Source: an archaeon (GTDB lineage: Archaea; Iainarchaeota; Iainarchaeia; Iainarchaeales; CSSED10-239). Taken from it: 32,000 nt of DNA. The notes under the pieces are model-generated. The model had not been told where the DNA came from, searched no databases, and was given only the letters and a program-made list of their open reading frames with translations. The position numbers and the translations under genes are program-made. Where the stretch lies: NCBI GenBank assembly GCA_035400625.1, contig DAOMZT010000001.1, positions 350,004 to 382,003 on the forward strand, given 5' to 3'. This document shows, piece by piece, positions 14,287 through 32,000 of this stretch (positions are counted from its first letter, which is position 1; each line of letters begins with the position of its first letter).

Positions 14287-14556
14287 ATGTTAGAAAAAAC
14301 AGTAAATGTAAATCTCAAAATATCTGACTATTCTAATAGAGTGTTAGGAGTAGTAAAAGAGAAATATGGCTTTAAGGACAAATCTCAGGCTCTCGATAAA
14401 ATAATGGATATGTATGGGGAAGAGTTTGTAGAAAAAGAGGTTAGAGAAGATGTTATTTTAGAAGTGATTGCAGAAGTTGAAAAAATGAAAATGCAAAAAC
14501 AAAAGCCAATGTCTAAAAGTGAATTAAATAAGTTTTTTGAAAATGCTAAAAAGTAA
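14287..14556 (+). CDS. Putative type II antitoxin (DUF2683-like)
   Basis: 89 aa. 'NLKISDYSNRVLGVVKEKYGFKDKSQALDKIMDMY' resembles the archaeal DUF2683 antitoxin pattern (N..l..vK.KYg.kDKS.A). It ends 9 nt before a RelE-like ORF. Confidence 0.5.
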   Translation: MLEKTVNVNLKISDYSNRVLGVVKEKYGFKDKSQALDKIMDMYGEEFVEKEVREDVILEVIAEVEKMKMQKQKPMSKSELNKFFENAKK

Positions 14557-14565
14557 TGTGGTAAA

Positions 14566-14844
14566 ATGACATTTGCTTCTAATCTATCTAATGAATTAAA
14601 AGAAACAATTAAGAAATTGTATTCTAAAGACAAAAAACTTTTTTTAGAATTACAAAAAAAGATAAATCTAATTATCTCTTGTGATAAAGAAACTATCAAT
14701 CATTATAAAAATTTAAGATACGGTCTTTCAGATTACAAAAGAGTGCATGTTGGAAAATCTATTGTTCTTTTATTTTCAGTAGATGTGCAGAATAATACAG
14801 TCTATTTTGTAAAATTTGATCATCACGATAAAATTTATAAGTGA
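14566..14844 (+). CDS. RelE/ParE-superfamily toxin
   Basis: 92 aa. 'YKNLRYGLSDYKRVHVGKSIVLLFSVDVQNNTVYFVKFDHHDKIYK' follows the RelE/ParE C-terminal pattern (l.g....yR.rvG.yr.iy.vd.....v....hr...Y). The size and pairing with a small upstream ORF fit a type II TA module. Confidence 0.6.
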   Translation: MTFASNLSNELKETIKKLYSKDKKLFLELQKKINLIISCDKETINHYKNLRYGLSDYKRVHVGKSIVLLFSVDVQNNTVYFVKFDHHDKIYK

Positions 14845-15575: not shown

Positions 15576-16157
15576 ATGAATAAAATGAAATCAATAATGT
15601 TAATATCTTGTTTTATATTATTTATTATCGCTCCTGTTTATGCATCAGCAATGCGTGGTGAAGCAATAAATAATCAAACTAAAGAGTGTGCCACTTATTT
15701 TCAAGGTGATGAATGCATGGACTGTGCGTTATCAGATCCCTGGATTGAACGAAAACACGGAGAACCTTGCCCAGAAGGATACAGAGAAATTAAAGATATG
15801 CAAGCACCTTCTATTTGTACGCCTATTCAAAATCAGTTTTGCTGTGAGGAATATCATTCTGGGGCAAGTGGCAATTGTACAAATCTTGTTATAAACAATA
15901 TTACAAAAGAATGTGCATTTGTTTTGGACATTAATAGTTGTGAGAAATTGCCAAAAAATTGGTTGCCAGTAGCATCTACTGAATATAAAAATTGTCCAAT
16001 AAGTTTAGAATATAAATGGTTAGATGATGTGTTAGTGTGTGATACCAAATCTACAAATTACAATAAATTCTATATGTTTGTTGTGATTGCAATTATAATA
16101 ATCTTAATAATGGGAGTTTGTCTTAAAAAATATAAAAAGGTTTTATGTCGTCAATAA
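15576..16157 (+). CDS. Cys-rich secreted protein with C-terminal TM anchor
   Basis: ATG 15576 is preferred over TTG 15561. It has a signal peptide 'MNKMKSIMLISCFILFIIAPVYASA', an ectodomain with 15 Cys by my count, a C-terminal TM 'FYMFVVIAIIIILIMGV', and a basic tail 'KKYKK'. Confidence 0.6.
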   Translation: MNKMKSIMLISCFILFIIAPVYASAMRGEAINNQTKECATYFQGDECMDCALSDPWIERKHGEPCPEGYREIKDMQAPSICTPIQNQFCCEEYHSGASGNCTNLVINNITKECAFVLDINSCEKLPKNWLPVASTEYKNCPISLEYKWLDDVLVCDTKSTNYNKFYMFVVIAIIIILIMGVCLKKYKKVLCRQ

Positions 16158-16659: not shown

Positions 16660-17055
16660 ATGGTTGAATGGAAAAGAGTATCAAGAAGAAAAGCAACAGG
16701 CGGAGTAAATAATGCTGTTAATGCTAAAACAAAATCCTTAAGTGATAAGGGCGGTAAATTCTCAAAGACAACAATTGCAAAAGCAGATAAGAGATTCAAG
16801 ACCAGAGCTGTTGGTGGCAATAAAAAAACAAAGATTTCTCATGCTCAGTATGTCTTGGTTTCTGAAGGTAACAAGACAATAAAAGCAAAAGTTATAGATG
16901 TTACAGAGAATCCAGCAAACAAGCACTTTGTAAGACAAAAGATAATCACAAAAGGTGCAATCCTTAAAGTAGATGTAGATGGCAAAGATGCAAAAGTAAA
17001 AGTAACATCAAGACCTGGTCAATCAGGCCAAGTAACTGGTGTTTTTGTTAAATGA
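16660..17055 (+). CDS. rps8e: 30S ribosomal protein eS8
   Basis: 131 aa. The N-terminus 'WKRVSRRKATGG' and the C-terminal 'GQVTGV' region fit archaeal S8e, as does the size. Confidence 0.85.
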   Translation: MVEWKRVSRRKATGGVNNAVNAKTKSLSDKGGKFSKTTIAKADKRFKTRAVGGNKKTKISHAQYVLVSEGNKTIKAKVIDVTENPANKHFVRQKIITKGAILKVDVDGKDAKVKVTSRPGQSGQVTGVFVK

Positions 17056-17606
17056 AATCCAATTCTTTTGTTAAGAGATTTAAAAAAGATTTAAAAAATA
17101 AGAATGAGCACAAAAAAGCTCTTCTTTTCTTGTTCTTGTTTATTTTTGTATTTTCGCTTTCTTATTTGTTGTTTGCCAAGTCTCCAATTTCGGGATATAT
17201 AAATTATTTTTTTGGTTTTTCATCTAGTGTAGTATTGTCTGTTTTTGGCGTAAGCAATAATTTTGTTTTTGATTCATTGACAAAGACCTCCACAATTGTT
17301 GTGTCCAATCTTAAAGAACCAATAGTGATTTCTTTTCTTTGTTCAGGCATCCTAGAATTTTGCCTTTTAATTTCTGCTATTCTTTCTTCAGTAGGTGTTT
17401 CTCTAAATAAAAGGATAGTTGGCGCTCTTCTTGCAATTCCAATCATATTTTTCTTTAATCTCACAAGGATAGTTGTTACTTCTCTAATAATAATAAATAG
17501 CAATCTTTCTTTTGCAAATTTTGTACATGGTTTCCTTTTTAGGCTTTTCCTTATAATTATTGTTATTGGAACCTATTATGTTTGGTTTAGAACTAACACT
17601 GAGTGA
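17052..17606 (+). CDS. Exosortase/archaeosortase-family membrane protein (short form)
   Basis: 184 aa, polytopic. The family's Cys/Arg/His signature appears in the expected order and context: 'ISFLCSGILEF' (Cys at 17340-17342), 'FFFNLTRIVV' (Arg at 17466-17468) and 'FANFVHGFLFRL' (His). ATG 17052 overlaps the eS8 TGA (ATGA). Confidence 0.6.
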   Translation: MKSNSFVKRFKKDLKNKNEHKKALLFLFLFIFVFSLSYLLFAKSPISGYINYFFGFSSSVVLSVFGVSNNFVFDSLTKTSTIVVSNLKEPIVISFLCSGILEFCLLISAILSSVGVSLNKRIVGALLAIPIIFFFNLTRIVVTSLIIINSNLSFANFVHGFLFRLFLIIIVIGTYYVWFRTNTE

Positions 17607-17612
17607 AGAGAA

Positions 17613-18227
17613 ATGCCAAAATCAAGAAGAATAAAAACACACACAAAAGGAAATCCAATAACTCCTTTGCCTGAAAAGAACCGCTATATCTTTACAGACC
17701 TAATCCCAAAATTAAAAGAATTACAAAGGTCAAAAAGCAAGATTGAAACCAAAGAAAAATATTTGAAATTAAATTCTGCAAAATCAGAAATTAAAGGTCA
17801 TGCAAAAGAGATCTATAACAATCTAATGGCAAGGAAAACATCTGATGGGAAATGTGTGCTTGATGGTCTAACTCCAAAAGTTAAGAAGCAAGTTTTTGAG
17901 TTTATAGAGTCTAAACTTTCTGCAACATATTTTGAAGGCATAACAAATTATAAAAAAATGATTATTCAACAAGAAGCAAGTGGATTAATTTCTGCGATTA
18001 AAAATCATAAAGAAAAATCAATGGTAAAAAAAGAAATAATTTCAAAAATCAAATACTATGAGGATCTAAAGAAAAAAGACAGAGACAAAATAAACGAAAT
18101 AATAAACTATAACTTATCATTAATAACCAACAAACCTTACTTGACTGCCAAACAATCAGCAGAACTTAATAGAACAATTTCTAAATATCTAGCAGAGATG
18201 GGTTTTCCAAGAATAATTTTTAAGTGA
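17613..18227 (+). CDS. Hypothetical Lys-rich protein
   Basis: 204 aa, starting 7 nt after the previous stop, beginning 'MPKSRRIKTHTKGNPITPL...'. No family recognised. Confidence 0.5.
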   Translation: MPKSRRIKTHTKGNPITPLPEKNRYIFTDLIPKLKELQRSKSKIETKEKYLKLNSAKSEIKGHAKEIYNNLMARKTSDGKCVLDGLTPKVKKQVFEFIESKLSATYFEGITNYKKMIIQQEASGLISAIKNHKEKSMVKKEIISKIKYYEDLKKKDRDKINEIINYNLSLITNKPYLTAKQSAELNRTISKYLAEMGFPRIIFK

Positions 18228-18233
18228 TACAAT

Positions 18234-18662
18234 ATGGGTAGCAGAAAAAATAATAGAAAAACAGTTATTAGAAAGAAGAAGCCACAAGAACAAATTACAG
18301 AAAAGCTCGAAAAGAAAAAATTAGATGTTCAAAAAATTCCTTTGCTTAAACAAAAAGATGTTTCTTTTATAACGGATTATATTCAGCAAGGCATAAACAG
18401 AAATTCTCGTGGGCTAAATATAGGCAAGATTGAAAAAAAACACAAAATGAAAATATATTTGTTGTTTGAAGAATTAAGAACAGACCCCAGAAATCAAAGA
18501 GCTCTTGCAAGAACTAACAAGTTAGATTTAGAAATTGCAGATGTGCTTATTGACTACATTAAAGCAAGGAACAAACCAATTAATGAAATATTAAATGAAT
18601 TATCTAAAAAAGAAATTGACATAATAAATAAACTGATTTTTAAAAAATTGTTTTTTGACTAA
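18234..18662 (+). CDS. Hypothetical basic protein, possible helix-turn-helix
   Basis: 142 aa with a basic N-terminus 'GSRKNNRKTVIRKKKPQ'. 'NQRALARTNKLDLEIADVLIDYIKA' is HTH-like by eye only. Confidence 0.45.
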   Translation: MGSRKNNRKTVIRKKKPQEQITEKLEKKKLDVQKIPLLKQKDVSFITDYIQQGINRNSRGLNIGKIEKKHKMKIYLLFEELRTDPRNQRALARTNKLDLEIADVLIDYIKARNKPINEILNELSKKEIDIINKLIFKKLFFD

Positions 18663-19254: not shown

Positions 19255-21909
19255 ATGAGAAAAGAATATTTGGTTAGTTTGTTATTTTTAGTTGCAATAG
19301 TTATTTCTGGAGTTTCTGCCGACCCTTTTGCAATTAATTATTATGTAAATACTGATAGTTCCCAAGAGTATCTTAATCTTCAATATGGAAACTATTATGA
19401 TAATGTTAGTTTAAGATTATGGCTACAAGCAACAGATGGCTATTCTAATGTGCCAGTTTATGTTTCTCCAAAGATTTATGGTCTTGATTCTTATGGCAAC
19501 CTTACTTACCTCTATTCTGTCCCTACTCAAACATATTATGCTTATTCAACACCTTATGAGTATGTCTATCCAAATGTCTTCTATCTAACTCCTGACTATT
19601 ATGGCTATGTGGTTAAGGTTTATGCAGAGGCAACAGGCTTTTACTATAACACTTACAGCTATGCTTATGTTTATCCAATAAATAATGCTCCTTATTATTA
19701 CTTTATAGAAGATACTCCTGCACACAATGATTTTGATTTTCCACAAAGCACAACTCCAAGTTGTTCAGACATTGTCCTTTCTGGTTCTCAAAATATCTAT
19801 CTAGATGAAGGAGAAAAGATGACTTATAGCCTTTATATTGAAAACGGAGCAAACGAAGATTTAGAGGTTGTTGATGTATATACAAGCAATCCAACAAAAC
19901 TAGATGTTGATGATATTGATTATCCTGATACTGTTCCTGACCTTTCAGTAAGAACAGTAAGAATCTATCTAGAAGCTGACTCAGTAAATGGAGATTATGA
20001 TTCTTCTTTTACTGTTACTGTTAAAGCAAGATATCCAGGTTCTTCAATATGTACAAAAACTTACAAAGTAAACTATAACATAAGTGAAGAAGATGAGGAT
20101 TATGAGGATGTTAGTTGTTCAGACCTAGATTTCTCCAACACAAGCTTTACAATTAATGATGACGAGACAAGCACAAGAAAAGTAAAACTAAAGAACAACT
20201 CATATGATTATGATTTTGAAATTGATGATATAACAATAAACAATAGAGATGGCTTAGATGCATATATAGAAGATGCACCAAGAGTTATTGATTATAGAGA
20301 TTATGAATATGTGGAAATAGAATTTGATGCTGATGACTTTGATTACGATATTACAAAATACTTGACTTTAAATGTAAAAGGTGCTTTTGTTGATGGCTCA
20401 CACGAGGTAAAAGAATGTACAAGAAAAGCAACAATAACTGTAAAGATTGAAGATGATGGCGATAACGATTCTGGTAACAATGAAACAAGCTGTAATGATA
20501 TTTCTCTTTACACAAGAGACATTAGCCAAGCAGAGAACAGCACAAATTATTTTTCTGAAAATAATGGTTTCTATATTTTAAATAATTCAAATAGGACCTT
20601 TACAATAACAAGCCTAAGTTTAAATGATAATTCTAGCTTTGTAGATATAAGCAATCTTAAATATTCCAAAACAATATCTTCAGGAAACACCAGCTCCTTA
20701 AATTTTACTTTAAAAACAAAAAATGTAAACACAACAGAATATGCAAGAGGCACATTATCTGTTGCAGGTAAATTTTCTGATGGCACAACCTGCAGTTCTT
20801 CAAAGATAGGTGTAAAATATTTTGATATAGTTGTAAACGATTCAACAGGAACAACCCAAACAACCCCTACAAACAACACCTCAAACTTTTCTGGAACAAG
20901 CTGTAATCTTGATATTGTTGCTCCATCTACTGTTTCAGTAAACAACAGACAAGAATCAATAAATGTTTATTTCAAGAACTATACAAGTAGGAACGGAAGA
21001 GTTGAAATAATCTCTAATGGCTTAACAACAAACCCAAGTGTTATTTTCCTAAGCGGTTATGATGATTTCTCACAAAACATTGCTCTTTCAAATTTCAATA
21101 ACCCAACAAGCATTACATATGTTGCTTATCTAAATGGCTGTTCTTCAAAATCTACCTTTACTAACATCATTAATAAAATTTCTGAATCTGACAGGATAAC
21201 TTTGGTTTCCTATCCAACTTTTATTAGTCCATTATCTGGCAATGCAAAGATTTCAGTAAATGTGAATAACAGCTTTACTGTTCCTAAAGAAGTAACTATA
21301 AAGTTTGCAGGTCTTCCAAGCACTTTTAGTTCCTCTCCCAAGTCAGTTACTATTTCATCACATGAGACCAAGCAAGTAGATTTGGAACTATCAATTCCAA
21401 AGAATGCTCAAAAAATTGATTATCAAGCATATATTGAGTTATATTCTGGCAATCTTTTAGTTAATAAATATCCAATAACAATTAGCCTATCTCCTGCAAT
21501 ATCGGAGATAACAATAGTTTCTAGTTCCAAGCAATCAGCATCTCAAGATAGAACATACACAATTACTTTAACAATAAAGAACAACACAAATAATATTCAA
21601 GAAGGAGTAGTTGATTTTGGCTTGCCTGACACTTATGTGATTGATGGTGAGAAAAACATCTCTCTTCTTCCAAACGAAGAGGTTACAAAAACCTACAAGA
21701 TTGTTTCTCCAACAAGATTAAGAGAAGACAAGGAAATAGACATAAAGATAAAAAATAAGGCAACAGGCAAAGAGCTAGCAAATGAAAAGATAACCTTAGA
21801 TTCAGGCAGAGCTCCATTAAGTGCTTTCTTTTCTTTAAGAAACACAAGCTTTATTCTTTTAGGTGTTGTTGCACTTATTGTTTTATTTTTAATTTTTAGA
21901 AAGAGATGA
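19255..21909 (+). CDS. Large cell-surface protein: signal peptide, Tyr-rich region, repeated beta-sandwich-like domains, C-terminal TM anchor
   Basis: 884 aa. It has 'ggag' at 19243-19246 and the signal peptide 'MRKEYLVSLLFLVAIVISGVSA'. Many N-x-S/T sequons are present. Four roughly 80-100-aa units are each bracketed by a Cys pair. The C-terminus is 'FILLGVVALIVLFLIFRKR'. Confidence 0.8.
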   Translation: MRKEYLVSLLFLVAIVISGVSADPFAINYYVNTDSSQEYLNLQYGNYYDNVSLRLWLQATDGYSNVPVYVSPKIYGLDSYGNLTYLYSVPTQTYYAYSTPYEYVYPNVFYLTPDYYGYVVKVYAEATGFYYNTYSYAYVYPINNAPYYYFIEDTPAHNDFDFPQSTTPSCSDIVLSGSQNIYLDEGEKMTYSLYIENGANEDLEVVDVYTSNPTKLDVDDIDYPDTVPDLSVRTVRIYLEADSVNGDYDSSFTVTVKARYPGSSICTKTYKVNYNISEEDEDYEDVSCSDLDFSNTSFTINDDETSTRKVKLKNNSYDYDFEIDDITINNRDGLDAYIEDAPRVIDYRDYEYVEIEFDADDFDYDITKYLTLNVKGAFVDGSHEVKECTRKATITVKIEDDGDNDSGNNETSCNDISLYTRDISQAENSTNYFSENNGFYILNNSNRTFTITSLSLNDNSSFVDISNLKYSKTISSGNTSSLNFTLKTKNVNTTEYARGTLSVAGKFSDGTTCSSSKIGVKYFDIVVNDSTGTTQTTPTNNTSNFSGTSCNLDIVAPSTVSVNNRQESINVYFKNYTSRNGRVEIISNGLTTNPSVIFLSGYDDFSQNIALSNFNNPTSITYVAYLNGCSSKSTFTNIINKISESDRITLVSYPTFISPLSGNAKISVNVNNSFTVPKEVTIKFAGLPSTFSSSPKSVTISSHETKQVDLELSIPKNAQKIDYQAYIELYSGNLLVNKYPITISLSPAISEITIVSSSKQSASQDRTYTITLTIKNNTNNIQEGVVDFGLPDTYVIDGEKNISLLPNEEVTKTYKIVSPTRLREDKEIDIKIKNKATGKELANEKITLDSGRAPLSAFFSLRNTSFILLGVVALIVLFLIFRKR

Positions 21910-22007: not shown

Positions 22008-23642
22008 ATGAGTAAGAAAGGGCAAGTTGCAATAGAAGTGTTGGTGTTAGTTGGCATAATAGTTATTGGAATGGTTATTTTTGGATTATTTTATATAGGC
22101 AAACACCCTGATCAAATTTCTGAAATAGATGAAGTAACAGAAGCTGGTATGGCAAGGTCTGTTATTAATTATTCTGATGTAACAACTCCATCTAGGATAG
22201 TTTGTGGAAATCAAATTTGCGAATCAGGAGAAACCCCTGCCAATTGCCCACAAGATTGTCAACCATCTTCAGGAAATCAAACTAATTGTGGAAATGAAAC
22301 CATAGATTCTGGAGAAGAATGTGATGGCCTAGATTTAAATGGCCAAACATGTATTACTCAAGGTTTTGATGGTGGTAATTTATCTTGTACTTCTAATTGT
22401 GATTTTAATACTAGTGCTTGTTATAATCTACCGCCATCTGAGTGTGGCAACGGTATTAGAGAAGGCACAGAGGAATGTGATAGGGATGATTTAAACAAAG
22501 AAACATGTGAAAGCAAAGGTTATCAATTTGGTACATTGTCTTGTTCTCGAGAATGTGAGTTTGATTATTCAAATTGTGGTTATGAGGGTGATAGTAATTG
22601 TTCAGTATTTAGTAGCAAGGGCTGGAGACCATACGATACCAATAATCCTACCTGGTATGTAAGTGGGCGAATGTCTACTTGGCCAGATAAAAATGCACTT
22701 TGGCTTTGCCCAAAAGATGATTGTACTCATATAACTGATTATTATTTTTTGTATAATTCTTTTAAGCTTTTTAAAGACACAAATGTAACAATATCTGCTC
22801 TTGGTGATGATGAGACAAAAGTATGGGTGTGGCCTGATAGAAATATCTCACGAGAAGAAGTAGTTATTCCAAAGCATGTTTGGACAAATGGTTGGACTTC
22901 TGGATCAATAATGTTAGAAGGCAGTGAAAGTGGAACTGAACATGCAATAGTTCAATTAATTTACGACACAAAACAAGTAGCAACAGGTGCTATTCTATCT
23001 GTTAGAGAATCAGATACTGACGAAGTTATCTTAAATACAATTTTAACTTCTGGCTGGCGTTATTTTAGCACAATGACACAACTAGAAGAAGAGAGATACT
23101 CTTCTGATAATGCTTGTTCAATAGTATATTCTGATCAAAAATGTGGAAATAACAAAATTGAAGGAAGCGAGCAATGTGATGGCACTGAATTAGGAGAATA
23201 TGGTGCACAAACCTGTAGTGATTATGATTCTTCATATTATGATGGAGAATTAAAATGTCATGAAAAATATTGTTATATTGACACCAGAAATTGTAAATCC
23301 AAAATAAAATTAACAGTCGCTCCTGCGTCAGGAACAACAAGAAGAAACAAAGACTTTTCAACAACTGTTTCTGTAACTGGGAAAAATGATGATGAATTTG
23401 GTTTGGTTGCTTCCATTTATTTGAAAAACACAACTACAGGAGAATATGAGCCAACAATAAATTGCAAGTATGTTTCAACAGGTGAATATAACGATACATT
23501 TGATTTAGGCGGATTTAAAATTCCAATAAACCGCAGTTATAGTTTTAATTGTAATAAAGCAGGAGAATATAAGCTTACTTTTACAGGGACAAACCAAGAA
23601 GATGTTGTTTCTGAAGCATCATCTATAAGAAAAATAACATGA
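22008..23642 (+). CDS. Giant pilin-like protein (class III signal peptide) with Cys-rich repeats and Ig-like C-terminal domain
   Basis: 544 aa from ATG 22008, with 'gggtgag' 8 nt upstream; the ORF track starts at GTG 21996. The N-terminus 'MSKKG|QVAIEVLVLVGIIVIGMVIFGLFY' fits the archaeal prepilin pattern. Three 'CGNxxIExGEECD' repeats and one short Cys knot follow. Confidence 0.75.
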   Translation: MSKKGQVAIEVLVLVGIIVIGMVIFGLFYIGKHPDQISEIDEVTEAGMARSVINYSDVTTPSRIVCGNQICESGETPANCPQDCQPSSGNQTNCGNETIDSGEECDGLDLNGQTCITQGFDGGNLSCTSNCDFNTSACYNLPPSECGNGIREGTEECDRDDLNKETCESKGYQFGTLSCSRECEFDYSNCGYEGDSNCSVFSSKGWRPYDTNNPTWYVSGRMSTWPDKNALWLCPKDDCTHITDYYFLYNSFKLFKDTNVTISALGDDETKVWVWPDRNISREEVVIPKHVWTNGWTSGSIMLEGSESGTEHAIVQLIYDTKQVATGAILSVRESDTDEVILNTILTSGWRYFSTMTQLEEERYSSDNACSIVYSDQKCGNNKIEGSEQCDGTELGEYGAQTCSDYDSSYYDGELKCHEKYCYIDTRNCKSKIKLTVAPASGTTRRNKDFSTTVSVTGKNDDEFGLVASIYLKNTTTGEYEPTINCKYVSTGEYNDTFDLGGFKIPINRSYSFNCNKAGEYKLTFTGTNQEDVVSEASSIRKIT

Positions 23643-23772: not shown

Positions 23773-26403
23773 ATGATGGTTAAAAAAAAGAAAGCTCAGG
23801 TTGCTTTAGAAATATTGGTTATTTTTGGAATTCTTGTTATCGGTGCTGTTATTTTTGCATTGTTTTATTCAACTAATATTAGAAGCAAAGTAGACATTTC
23901 TTCAAATGTTCAGGGTAGCTATTCAGATATTGAAAAAAATTTACTAAGCGAAGATCCACAACAGCCAATAGAAATTTGTGGTAATGGTCGTTGTGGTCCA
24001 GGAGAAAACAGCGCAAATTGTCCTGATGATTGTGGTTATCCAAATTCACTTTGTCCAACAACCCCATTAAACATATCTGTTAAAATGATACCAAATGAAG
24101 GTGTACCAGCAGGTGCTCCTGGTCATAATACTTTTGATTTAAAAGTAAGTGCTATTAGACAACCAGGATATGATGATAAAGAAATAATTGTTAAAAAATT
24201 AAGAATAAAAAATACAATGGCCACTAATGCGATTTATTACAATAACAACAATTTACCATTAGATGGTGTTGAAATTGATAGCGAAATGAATATAAGCGCA
24301 GAAAATTATTTTAATTATACAATTTCTAATCTTTCAAGTACCCGTTCTGGAAGCTATCCATTTGAAGTTTTAGTTGAAGTTCCTGGTTGTGAGGGATTAG
24401 ATACAATTGGTTCAACAGTTGTTGATATAAAAGGTTTATCTGCAAGATTAAGCTTATATCCTGATGGGGGAAATTATCAAGATGAAAATTTTGGAGTTAA
24501 TGTAGACGTATTTGGTTATAATTCAGGTAGTAACATAAGTATTACAAATATATTTGTAGCAGATGCGCTAGGCAATTTACTTAATAACGTTTGTTCTTAT
24601 AAAAAAGAGAGAATACCTATTTCTGGTAAAAGTGTAGATTTATTACTTGATAAAAGAAATAATAATTATAATTATTTATTTACTAATAATTTTGCTTGTT
24701 ATCAACCAGGCGAATATAAGTTTATATTTACTTTACATGATAATGATGAAAACACAGATTATGATTATAATGCTACAATTTTTAAAAGTATAAAAGATCG
24801 TTGTTTATATTTAAGAAATGCAGGAGAAGGAACAAAATCAAATCCATATATAATTTCTACTCCTGGTGATTTAGATTGTATAAGATACAATCTAAGTAAA
24901 TATTTTAGATTAGGGGCAGATATAGATTTAAATCACGAACTTTTATCTGACAATTCAGAGTATTATTGGTATGATGATATATATGGTTGGAATCCGATAG
25001 GCACAATGGATGCGCCATTTACTGGTTCATTTGATGGTGCAGGCTATACAATACGAAATTTATATACCAGAAGAAACAATGTAGACCCAGTTAATGGGGT
25101 AATAACTCCTATATTATTTACAGGAGATATTTACAATTCTTTATTTTTAAATGTAAGTGATGCTAACTTTAATAATTTAAATTTATCTGGTGTAGATTTA
25201 AATGGTTGGCAATCAGGATCATTAGCTTATTATTCAACCAATTCTAATTTTAAAGACATACATGTTAATGGAGATGTAGTAAGTTATTATTTTGGTGGCG
25301 GAATAGTATCATATGCGCAAGATTCTAATTTTAGTGGTTGTTCATTTGATGGTAATTTAAATATAAAAGGTATGGGTGGCGGATTAATAGGAGAAGCAAA
25401 AAATATTATAATAAATAAGTCTACAGCAAACGCCAACATAATTGGCAAATATATGATTGGTGGGCTAGTTGGTGTGATTAGAGATTTTGATAATCTATCT
25501 TTGATTAAAGAATCATCTAGTTCTGGAATTATTAGTTATGGATCAGGGAGTATAGGGTGTATAGGTGGTTTGTGTGGTTCTTGTGCAAGTGTTATTGTAA
25601 ATAGTCATTCTGATGTTGATATATCAAAAGGCTATTTAAGTATAGGTGGTTTGTGTGGTTCTTGTGTATCAATAATAAACAGTTATGCTACAGGAGATAT
25701 AAATTCGTTAGAAATAACAAGTGGTATTTATGCGAGTGGACATTTACCTAATTATATAGGTGGTTTAGCAGGTGAAGTTTCAGGAGATGTAAAAAATAGT
25801 TATGCTACAGGAAATATAAATCTAATTTCACAACCAAATAACAATGCATTCCGTATTGGAGGATTAATTGGTGCAACTTCTGGTTTTTCTACAACTCCAC
25901 TAAGTGTTAGTAATTCTTATGCCAGAGGCAATATAACAATAAATGGAGTAGCAGAAGAGATTGGGGGGTTAATAGGTCATCCAATGGGATCGTTAAAGCC
26001 TCAAATTCTTAATTGTTATAGTACAGGAAATATAGCAATTTCAGGAGAAAATAGCTTAGTAGGCGGATTAATTGGTGGTAATAATGACGCAAATACAACT
26101 TCAAGTTATTGGGATACTCAAACTTCTGGCCAATCTACAAGCTACGGTGGTTTAGGCAGAACAACAGAAGATATGACTTATCCAGAATACCCAGAAACCT
26201 ATGAAGGTTGGGATTTTAAAAATATTTGGATAAACGATATGAAAAAAACAAATGATGGCTATCCGTATCTTAAGTTAAATATTGTAGGTCTGGAAAGAGG
26301 CAGGGATTTAATCCCTGATTCAGAGGATATTATTGCTTCTTTCCCATATATTTATATTTCAGAAGATGGAGAAACAATAGATCCTGATTTGATTAATAAC
26401 TAG
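23773..26403 (+). CDS. Giant pilin-like protein (class III signal peptide) with Ig-like domains and GLUG-motif beta-helix
   Basis: 876 aa, with 'ggtga' at 23764-23768. The N-terminus is 'MMVKKKKA|QVALEILVIFGILVIGAVIFALFY'. Nine 'GG(G/L)xG' GLUG-type motifs occur at about 27-35-aa spacing, for example 'IGGLVGV', 'IGGLCGSC', 'IGGLAGEV' and 'VGGLIGGN'. The terminal 'SYWDTQTSGQSTS' and 'NDGYPYLK' are typical of GLUG-repeat proteins. Confidence 0.8.
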   Translation: MMVKKKKAQVALEILVIFGILVIGAVIFALFYSTNIRSKVDISSNVQGSYSDIEKNLLSEDPQQPIEICGNGRCGPGENSANCPDDCGYPNSLCPTTPLNISVKMIPNEGVPAGAPGHNTFDLKVSAIRQPGYDDKEIIVKKLRIKNTMATNAIYYNNNNLPLDGVEIDSEMNISAENYFNYTISNLSSTRSGSYPFEVLVEVPGCEGLDTIGSTVVDIKGLSARLSLYPDGGNYQDENFGVNVDVFGYNSGSNISITNIFVADALGNLLNNVCSYKKERIPISGKSVDLLLDKRNNNYNYLFTNNFACYQPGEYKFIFTLHDNDENTDYDYNATIFKSIKDRCLYLRNAGEGTKSNPYIISTPGDLDCIRYNLSKYFRLGADIDLNHELLSDNSEYYWYDDIYGWNPIGTMDAPFTGSFDGAGYTIRNLYTRRNNVDPVNGVITPILFTGDIYNSLFLNVSDANFNNLNLSGVDLNGWQSGSLAYYSTNSNFKDIHVNGDVVSYYFGGGIVSYAQDSNFSGCSFDGNLNIKGMGGGLIGEAKNIIINKSTANANIIGKYMIGGLVGVIRDFDNLSLIKESSSSGIISYGSGSIGCIGGLCGSCASVIVNSHSDVDISKGYLSIGGLCGSCVSIINSYATGDINSLEITSGIYASGHLPNYIGGLAGEVSGDVKNSYATGNINLISQPNNNAFRIGGLIGATSGFSTTPLSVSNSYARGNITINGVAEEIGGLIGHPMGSLKPQILNCYSTGNIAISGENSLVGGLIGGNNDANTTSSYWDTQTSGQSTSYGGLGRTTEDMTYPEYPETYEGWDFKNIWINDMKKTNDGYPYLKLNIVGLERGRDLIPDSEDIIASFPYIYISEDGETIDPDLINN
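25560..25666 (+). repeat. 81-nt-period internal duplication with a 26-nt identical core
   Basis: 'tataggtggtttgtgtggttcttgtg' occurs at 25560-25585 and 25641-25666, exactly 81 nt (27 codons) apart. Both copies encode 'IGGLCGSC'. Confidence 0.9.
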
Positions 26404-30627: not shown

Positions 30628-32000
30628 ATGAGAGCAAGAGAATATTTTGTTATATCTATAATTCTATTATTATTCATATCTAGTAGTGTTTACTCTGAAG
30701 AAATTTTTGCAAAAAAAACAAGTTTAGAAATTAATGATAAAGAAATAAAACTAGAAGAAAATATTCAAGAAAAATATCAAGAAGATGTTTTCTTTCCACC
30801 AGAAGAATATCTTCTAAAGCAAGGAATGACTCTTGAAAGTTACAAGCAATCATTGATAGACAATGCACCAAAAAACCGAAACTCAAGTGTTAATAACATT
30901 GATGGCACATCGCCATTAACAGGTAACATCCACATTCCTGTTTTACTTGTTGAGTTTACAGATAAGCCACACACTTTATCTTTAACAGACATCAATGCTG
31001 CATTTAACAGTCCTAATTATTTAAATGGCCAAGGAATAAGTGTAAGCAAATACTACGCTAAGCAATCTTATGGAGCATTAAATGTTACTTTTGATGTTTT
31101 TGGCTGGCAGACAGCTCCTCATACCTATTCATATTATAGTCAAAACAACAACACAAATTTTCAAATGGAATTAGATACAATTAATCTTTTTAATTCCACT
31201 ATAGATTATAGTCAATATGATAATGATGGCAGTGGAAGAATAGATGGCTTTGTAATAATTTATGCTGGAAAAGCAGGCGTTGCACCAAATGCCGTTTGGC
31301 CACATGCAAGAATCGTGCGAAACTATACTGGCAATCCAGTAGATGGCAAATACCTTGGTAATATTGCTGTAGTTCCTGAGCTTGGTCATTTTGGTAATCA
31401 ATTTGAGATTCCTGTAACAACACACGAGTTTGCACATGTTCTTGGCTTAATGGATCTTTATAGCATAGGTCCAAACGGTTCAGGAAGTGGCCCAATAAAA
31501 AATTTTACCATGATGATTTTTGATGATGATTATTGTCTTAATAAGCCAATCAATCTTGATGTTTGGTCAAGATATTTCCTTGGCTGGATAGACCCTATTG
31601 TTCTGACAACGGATAGCCAAAAAGAAATAAGTCTAAGAAGTGTAAATGATTACCCAGATGCAGTAATTCTAAAAAACAACAACATGACGGCAAGAGAATT
31701 TTTCATAATCGAAAACAGACACAGAAATGCAAGCGACCCAAACAATCTAGATAACTGTATGTTTAGTAATTCATCATCTACAAGAGGAGGTTTTGCAATC
31801 TATCATGTTGATGAGAATAAGATAGAGGCACATTATCCTAATAATTGGGTAAACTGGGATCCTGATGGTAACTATTTTGATGACACAATAAGCCATCCAG
31901 GAATAATGTACGAAAAAAACTATATAAGTAATTATAATGGAGGGGGTCATGGCACAGTAGACATGTATTTTAATGCAACAGTGGAGGGTTGCGATTCTTT
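30628..32000 (+). CDS. Secreted M6-family (immune inhibitor A / InhA-like) zinc metalloprotease, 3' end cut by the window edge
   Basis: Absent from the ORF track because there is no in-window stop. Hand translation from ATG 30628 is open to nt 32000. It has the signal peptide 'MRAREYFVISIILLLFISSSVYS'. 'IHIPVLLVEFTD', 'GRIDGFVIIYAG' and the zinc motif 'THEFAHVLGLMDLY' (HExxH...DLY) are hallmarks of M6 peptidases. Confidence 0.8.
   Translation, partial: MRAREYFVISIILLLFISSSVYSEEIFAKKTSLEINDKEIKLEENIQEKYQEDVFFPPEEYLLKQGMTLESYKQSLIDNAPKNRNSSVNNIDGTSPLTGNIHIPVLLVEFTDKPHTLSLTDINAAFNSPNYLNGQGISVSKYYAKQSYGALNVTFDVFGWQTAPHTYSYYSQNNNTNFQMELDTINLFNSTIDYSQYDNDGSGRIDGFVIIYAGKAGVAPNAVWPHARIVRNYTGNPVDGKYLGNIAVVPELGHFGNQFEIPVTTHEFAHVLGLMDLYSIGPNGSGSGPIKNFTMMIFDDDYCLNKPINLDVWSRYFLGWIDPIVLTTDSQKEISLRSVNDYPDAVILKNNNMTAREFFIIENRHRNASDPNNLDNCMFSNSSSTRGGFAIYHVDENKIEAHYPNNWVNWDPDGNYFDDTISHPGIMYEKNYISNYNGGGHGTVDMYFNATVEGCDS

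Follow-up and report, generated by a model that had tools for sequence, protein, structure and literature searches.

The analysed window, a stretch of 32,000 nucleotides (nt) from an Iainarchaeota genome (assembly GCA_035400625.1, contig DAOMZT010000001.1), contains a gene for a 184-residue polytopic membrane protein that begins at the very end of the gene for ribosomal protein eS8 (rps8e). On balance, this protein is probably a compact archaeosortase of an unnamed Iainarchaeota subfamily that is always found after rps8e, and it most likely processes one dedicated substrate, a secreted surface protein of 884 residues encoded 1.6 kb downstream. Judged from synteny and tail architecture, this pairing is plausible. 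An earlier reading of the same DNA without database searches (the sequence-only reading) had proposed the archaeosortase, its coupling to eS8, and two neighboring substrates sharing a new recognition motif. The coordinates of all features are collected in Table 1.

A short archaeosortase with conserved active-site residues

The exosortase/archaeosortase signature of NCBIfam (TIGR04178) matched residues 93-180 of the 184-residue protein with 36.7 bits against a cutoff of 23. The same signature matched all 29 homologue clusters retrieved by a word-indexed search (180-190 residues, 43-97% identity), several of which had already been annotated as 'exosortase/archaeosortase family protein' by NCBI or JGI, as well as all 114 wider relatives that were aligned from an exhaustive profile search. 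The family assignment of the sequence-only reading, which had relied on a Cys, an Arg, and a His in the segments FLCSGILEF, NLTRIVV, and FVHGFLFR, was thereby borne out. These segments were present and carried C97, R139, and H159, respectively. Cys was found at position 97 in 113 of the 114 aligned relatives, while Asn136, Arg139, and His159 were shared by all of them, and position 164 was occupied by Arg in 102 and by Lys in 10. Across the 29 homologues of the subfamily, C97, E102, N136, R139, H159, and R164 were invariant. The protein is almost certainly a member of the exosortase/archaeosortase family with an intact active site. The Pfam model Exosortase_EpsH (PF09721) remained sub-threshold for the window sortase (14.4 vs. 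25.7 bits) and was recorded for nine of the homologues.

In ArtA of Haloferax, Cys173, Arg214, and Arg253 are critical for activity (PMC9263693). The spacing between the conserved Cys and Arg was 42 residues in the window sortase compared with 41 in ArtA (C173 to R214 in the numbering of PMC9263693), and we infer that the two active sites are equivalent residue by residue.

Hydropathy identified the sortase as a polytopic integral membrane protein, as did its AlphaFold2 (AF2) model, in which four to five long helices are hydrophobic. The model (mean predicted local distance difference test score, pLDDT, 86) started with an N-terminal amphipathic helix, followed by helices at residues 17-42 and 46-64 and a three-stranded beta sheet at residues 69-93, while the C-terminal half, comprising helices at residues 100-111, 118-149, and 152-183, bore the conserved residues. 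Based on the positive-inside rule, the basic N-terminus and the Lys/Arg loop at residues 115-121 would lie inside, and Cys97 would be located at the outer end of its helix. With R139, H159, and R164 presumably in the outer leaflet, the active site would be placed where a juxtamembrane substrate motif would sit. A sequence search of the PDB returned no solved structure resembling the sortase, and a Foldseek search returned nothing meaningful.

The subfamily assignment was carried out with the named models, none of which was reached by the window sortase or any of its 29 homologues. The window sortase scored 25.6 bits with the XrtM model (cutoff 125), 24 bits with XrtG (cutoff 102.75), 23.8 bits with XrtH (cutoff 86), 21.3 bits with ArtA (TIGR04125, cutoff 75), 17.9 bits with ArtD (TIGR04175, cutoff 125), and 16 bits with the pacearchaeosortase model (NF033505, cutoff 80), for which the best E-value over the subfamily was 4.3e-5. 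In the exhaustive profile search of 1.84 billion representatives, two sequences scored 274 and 148 bits, after which the scores fell to 114 bits and continued downward as a continuum of other short (160-220 residues) sortase-like proteins. Overall, 439 proteins were matched at E<=1e-3. Because of this gap between 274/148 and 114 bits, the subfamily, which carries no name, is discrete.

One protein from the profile search (P0103) had 1102 residues, with a complete short sortase domain at residues 6-182 followed by a Ser/Gly/Ala-rich region of about 900 residues and a Cys-rich end. Either a sortase has been naturally fused to a large protein here, or two gene calls have been merged.

Distribution and linkage to the eS8 gene

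When one genome per GTDB species was scanned, 16 genome loci were obtained, all of which came from metagenome-assembled genomes of DPANN archaea. The loci that carried a lineage name were assigned to Candidatus Iainarchaeum, ainarchaeum, Diapherotrites, and Candidatus Forterrea multitransposorum, all within the phylum Iainarchaeota. As far as seen, the sortase subfamily is confined to this DPANN phylum, also called Diapherotrites. Together with a further locus (L022) and three metagenome loci (L028, L029, and L034), these 16 loci formed the set of 20 related loci used for comparison.

The eS8 gene was located directly upstream of the sortase gene in 20 of the 20 related loci. Since the frame at 17052-17606 has 29 homologue clusters and conserved synteny in 20 further loci, it is a real gene rather than a chance reading frame, and it is probably co-transcribed with rps8e. 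Its start overlaps the end of the eS8 gene (...GTT AAA TGA), from which translational coupling had been proposed in the sequence-only reading. The overlap was indeed present and the linkage to eS8 was tight, but the overlap of 4 nt was limited to the window and four close relatives (L001, L002, L003, and the metagenome locus L034), and gaps were seen in other loci, of 5-10 nt in ten of them and of 20-46 nt in three. Coupling through the ATGA overlap is thus a trait of the closest relatives, whereas immediate adjacency to eS8 is the invariant trait. Among more distant short sortases, no eS8 linkage was found for P0056, P0058, and P0059, while the upstream side of P0057 was cut by the end of the contig.

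In two of the loci, L007 (1856-2434) and L012 (9995-10573), the sortase frame was intact and conserved from its first residues, although no ATG, GTG, or TTG was present near the N-terminus and the frame opened 12 nt past the eS8 stop. This suggests a noncanonical start codon or re-initiation after eS8 in these two loci.

The 884-residue protein and its putative C-terminal signal

In every locus of sufficient length, an orthologue of the 884-residue protein was encoded 620-1844 nt after the sortase gene. The mature protein, in which Ser, Thr, Asn, and Tyr are abundant, has an isoelectric point of 4.4 and contains 23 N-x-S/T sequons compared with 15.9 expected from composition. Its AF2 model (pLDDT 78) comprised about seven beta-sandwich domains connected by low-confidence linkers, followed by a disordered segment at residues 853-866 and a terminal helix at residues 864-883. 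Foldseek retrieved only generic arrays of Ig-like domains (ciliary ASH-domain proteins, alpha-2-macroglobulins) with low TM-scores, and the 23 homologues in the databases were all unnamed. These traits are compatible with an archaeal surface-layer (S-layer) protein or major surface glycoprotein, short of proof, and the fold does not establish S-layer identity; the 884-residue protein is probably of this kind.

The sequence-only reading had quoted the C-termini of the 884-residue protein (...GRAPLSAFFSLRNTSFILLGVVALIVLFLIFRKR) and of a Cys-rich protein encoded upstream of eS8 (...FYMFVVIAIIIILIMGVCLKKYKKVLCRQ), both of which were present, and had seen no known signature ahead of either transmembrane helix. 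No known CTERM sorting-domain model recognized the tail of the 884-residue protein. The best matches were sub-threshold, namely Loki-CTERM (16.4 vs. 19.9 bits), the LPXTG anchor (14.3 vs. 15.9), and PEF-CTERM (13.2 vs. 23), and their alignments covered only the helix and the basic part. A conserved block before the helix did emerge, however, when 13 locus-derived orthologues of the 884-residue protein were aligned. The motif [LI]-[ST]-[GA]-F-[FL]-[ST]-[LF] was found in 34 of 34 distinct orthologue tails, usually followed by x-N-x-G, and then by the transmembrane helix and a cluster of Lys/Arg. The window protein carries it as LSAFFSL, and variants such as ITGFLTL, LSGFFTL, and LTGFLVF occurred in other orthologues. 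Position 3 was Gly or Ala in all 34 tails, and position 4 was Phe in 30 and Leu in 4. While this tabulation was anchored by a regular expression, an unanchored full-length MAFFT alignment of 22 sequences returned the same columns. In the AF2 model, the motif lay in the low-confidence flexible segment right before the transmembrane helix.

In the 22-sequence alignment, the motif had a mean information of 3.21 bits, compared with 2.36 in the linker ahead of it, 2.86 in the helix, and 2.83 in the whole protein. The motif therefore marks a local maximum of conservation within a variable stretch close to the membrane, while other parts of the protein are conserved more strongly.

According to the mechanism that we propose, the 884-residue substrate would be translocated by Sec and would remain tethered to the membrane through its C-terminal helix. 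The sortase would recognize the juxtamembrane motif at the outer face of the membrane, and Cys97, assisted by Arg139 and His159/Arg164, would cleave off the helix together with the basic tail. By analogy with ArtA, the new C-terminus would then be passed to a membrane lipid.

Weighing of alternative explanations

The Cys-rich protein shares a signal peptide, a C-terminal transmembrane helix, and a basic tail with the 884-residue protein, which is why both could be taken as substrates recognized through one new motif. That the 884-residue protein has a new recognition motif is plausible, but for the Cys-rich protein the proposal is wrong, and no motif common to the two was found. The Cys-rich tail, which reads NYNKFYMF up to the transmembrane helix, lacks [ST][GA]F[FL] and matched no CTERM model. 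Its gene had no homologue in the 16 species-level relatives and was also absent from the near-identical strain L029, where the flanking genes were 97-100% identical. The protein was rejected as a substrate. Its gene, inserted between those for the nuclease and eS8, varies among strains and lies outside the conserved system. The explanation with two substrates has thus been largely refuted, and we regard it as very improbable.

It is similarly far-fetched that the protein derives from a sortase but has lost its protease function and taken on a role linked to the ribosome or to membrane translation, although such a role would explain its position after eS8. The eS8-sortase adjacency, with overlapping genes or genes a few nt apart, is invariant in the 20 loci, the protein is much shorter than ArtA, and its match to the Pfam model is sub-threshold. 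Against this, the residues expected for catalysis are invariant across the subfamily and its relatives, which would be unexpected after a loss of activity, and the short forms XrtG, XrtH, XrtM, ArtD, and pacearchaeosortase are established NCBIfam subfamilies. Tight packing with unrelated housekeeping genes, moreover, is common in reduced genomes.

More serious is the alternative that the sortase is genuine but the 884-residue protein is not its substrate. The latter would stay anchored by its own transmembrane helix, as does SlaB of Sulfolobus, and the motif would serve anchoring or packing, with the true substrates encoded elsewhere and the adjacency reflecting a phylum-wide gene order around ribosomal-protein genes. 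We consider this possible but rather unlikely, although several results weigh in its favor and against the pairing that we prefer. The entire 15-kb neighborhood is syntenic in these genomes, from enolase, L1-L10-L12, the Hef helicase with its nuclease, and eS8 to the 884-residue protein gene, and not merely the sortase/884-residue pair; because of this phylum-wide synteny, adjacency alone is weak evidence for a functional link. No PssA/PssD-like lipid-attachment genes were found near the sortase locus. The conservation of the motif is only moderate relative to the whole protein, its window ranking 163rd among 878 seven-residue windows. Distant orthologues of the 884-residue protein (L008, L011, and L013-L015) carry a Lys/Glu-rich cytoplasmic tail of 60-80 residues after the helix, the end of which is conserved (ITLGELD or similar to VTLKELE), and they may keep their anchor. 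Such a tail is absent in the clade of the window and would be unusual in a sortase signal. Finally, the distant short sortases P0056, P0057, P0058, and P0059 had no obvious adjacent substrate in flanks that were short or cut by contig ends, and substrates need not adjoin their sortase.

The hallmark of a sorting signal is one tag on several unrelated proteins, and a second, non-orthologous protein bearing the motif was not found. Among all open reading frames (ORFs) of the window and the 16 loci, the motif in combination with a C-terminal helix occurred only in orthologues of the 884-residue protein. A profile of 12 tails, a query too short and hydrophobic for this purpose, returned one orthologue fragment and one chance match at E<=10 from 5.8 billion proteins. 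A degenerate DNA pattern comprising the motif, a helix, and a basic tail hit 23 stretches of metagenome contigs, five of which were orthologues and 18 chance matches, the pattern being narrow in that the helix length was fixed at 17 residues. In the roughly 10 kb on each side of the window, the other secreted proteins had no C-terminal anchor, except for one anchored protein of 268 residues (L050) without the motif. These data fit a dedicated system of one enzyme and one substrate, and they equally allow true substrates elsewhere in the genome.

Several observations nevertheless argue for the 884-residue protein as the substrate. Within about 52 kb of its own genome and the 20 related loci, it was alone in uniting all four features, a signal peptide, the motif, a transmembrane helix, and a basic tail. 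The other secreted and C-terminally anchored proteins in the 52 kb, the Cys-rich and the 268-residue protein, both lack the motif, and therefore the motif is not generic to anchored proteins. In addition, the sortase and the 884-residue protein families apparently occur in one and the same lineage only, and on the same contigs. ArtA was reported to act on a tripartite signal located away from the extreme C-terminus (PMC6098224), and the long tails of the distant orthologues therefore do not exclude processing.

Neighboring genes

The window has a G+C content of about 30% and contains archaeal housekeeping genes, including those for PheRS, an IF5A-like protein, enolase, L1/L10/L12, and a Hef-type helicase with an ERCC4 nuclease, in addition to eS8. 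The eS8 protein scored 76 bits with TIGR00307, for which the cutoff is 78.25. The order eS8, sortase, in some loci the 204-residue and 142-residue proteins, the 128-residue protein on the reverse strand, and the orthologue of the 884-residue protein was kept in every locus of sufficient length.

Table 1. Features of the sortase locus, in window coordinates
Feature	Position	Strand	Remarks
Cys-rich secreted protein, 193 aa (198 aa from an upstream TTG)	15576-16157	+	Signal peptide, transmembrane helix, basic tail
Ribosomal protein eS8 gene	16660-17055	+	First of a tight four-gene run; Pfam Ribosomal_S8e 75.9 bits, cutoff 30.2
eS8 stop/sortase start overlap, ATGA	17052-17055	+	4 nt, read from the sequence
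Archaeosortase-family protein, 184 aa, polytopic	17052-17606	+	TIGR04178 above cutoff; unnamed Iainarchaeota subfamily
Cys97 codon	17340-17342	+	Predicted catalytic nucleophile
Asn136 codon	17457-17459	+	
Arg139 codon	17466-17468	+	
HGFLFR segment	17526-17543	+	His159, Arg164
Soluble proteins of 204 and 142 aa, both small and basic	17613-18662	+	Same gene run as the sortase, gaps of 6 nt each
Coiled-coil protein, 128 aa	18664-19050	-	Separates the sortase run from the 884-aa gene; divergent from the latter
Secreted surface protein, 884 aa, candidate sortase substrate	19255-21909	+	Signal peptide at residues 1-22
LSAFFSL juxtamembrane motif	21817-21837	+	Residues 855-861 of the 884-aa protein; conserved in the orthologue alignment
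C-terminal transmembrane helix and basic tail RKR	21847-21906	+	Helix at residues 865-881 by hydropathy; AF2 helix 864-883

The 204-residue and 142-residue (aa in Table 1, amino acids) proteins belonged to no family in Pfam or NCBIfam, and the former followed the sortase in some loci only, with 30-41% identity. Of the 16 genome loci, 15 encoded the 128-residue protein (59-92% identity), L006 being the one that ended right after the sortase, and the protein was also found in L022, L028, L029, and L034. It was better conserved than the sortase itself, and its Pfam matches were weak coiled-coil matches that gave no family assignment.

The genes directly after that of the 884-residue protein encode large proteins with class III (type IV pilin-like) signal peptides (KKGQVAIEVLV.., KKAQVALEILV..) at 22008-23642 and 23773-26403 on the forward strand, and another such protein lies at 14661-16094 of L049. 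One of these proteins contains GLUG repeats. Similar pilin-like genes followed the orthologue of the 884-residue protein in L001, L002, L004, L028, L029, L034, L045, and L047. The gene for a protein of 972 residues with CHB_HEX_C and Fn3_assoc repeats begins further downstream, near position 30628, and extends beyond the window. This protein adjoins a secreted protein of 656 residues with a Hint/PT-HINT (intein-like) domain (L049, 16163-18133, about 5 kb past the right end of the window), and both lack a C-terminal anchor.

Two small ORFs (14287-14556 and 14566-14844, forward strand) separate the gene for the Hef-type helicase from that for its partner, the ERCC4 nuclease. The second had a full-length sub-threshold match to a ParE toxin (20.4 vs. 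23 bits), and together the ORFs resemble an inserted toxin-antitoxin pair. This pair was present in some of the related loci only (L002 and L012, partly L007 and L010).

Comparison with known systems and implications

One of the closest systems was ArtA with PGF-CTERM in Haloferax volcanii, where ArtA processes the S-layer glycoprotein (PMC6098224). The window system resembles it in the superfamily signature, in the conserved Cys and Arg, and in its candidate substrate, a large, secreted surface protein of glycoprotein-like character that combines a short motif with a transmembrane helix and a basic tail. Both motifs also hold a small residue followed by Phe ('GF' in PGF, 'AF' here). In contrast, the window sortase stays far below the ArtA cutoff (21.3 vs. 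75 bits) and has about 184 residues compared with 271 positions in the ArtA model. At the place of the Pro in PGF, the motif here has Ser/Thr, and it lies about 4-7 residues further from the helix, and PGF-CTERM did not match the tails of the 884-residue protein orthologues even at E<=10. Furthermore, there is one candidate substrate here, whereas genomes with ArtA have 1-52.

A second likeness is to pacearchaeosortase (NF033505, model length 167) and the 'PACE-CTERM-PROT putative S-layer protein' (NF033506), which likewise involve a DPANN lineage, a short sortase, and, as implied by NCBIfam, an apparent one-to-one pairing with a large putative S-layer protein. However, the window sortase scored 16 bits against the cutoff of 80, and NF033506 reached only 6.9 bits against 110, on a single tail. 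The phylum here is Iainarchaeota, and eS8 linkage was seen only for the Iainarchaeota subfamily. No papers on pacearchaeosortase, PACE-CTERM, Loki-CTERM, or Heimdall-CTERM were found in the literature.

XrtG, XrtH, XrtM, and archaeosortase D (ArtD, PIP-CTERM) were similar in length (150-190 residues) and had the best pairwise similarity of hidden Markov models, but all of their scores were 18-26 bits against cutoffs of 86-125. ArtD-associated proteins also have class III signal peptides, as do the proteins encoded right after the 884-residue protein. The latter matched TIGR04205 in the signal-peptide segment only (12 vs. 65 bits), and no PIP motif was present here.

Seen against these systems, the locus adds a subfamily, a candidate substrate, a motif, and a fixed eS8 linkage as new details. 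It adds no new principle, and the family had already been named by automated annotation. In its fullest form, our proposal is that a minimal Iainarchaeota archaeosortase in the eS8 transcription unit is dedicated to the major surface (S-layer) protein of the lineage through an undescribed '[LI][ST][GA]FF[ST]L-CTERM' signal, and that some genera have a long conserved cytoplasmic tail, so that cleavage would release a separate membrane-tethered fragment. For this extended version, we hold the chances to be evenly balanced.

To our knowledge, the biogenesis of the DPANN cell surface is almost unstudied, and most DPANN S-layer proteins have yet to be identified. If the pairing is true, a candidate S-layer protein of Iainarchaeota and the enzyme expected to anchor it would be named, and the archaeosortase catalogue would gain a new sortase subfamily together with a new sorting signal. 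For annotation, a subfamily model and a C-terminal domain model, both missing from the current libraries, would be gained. With 184 residues and a single clear candidate substrate, the enzyme would also lend itself, as a minimal system, to studies of structure and mechanism in a family without a solved structure.

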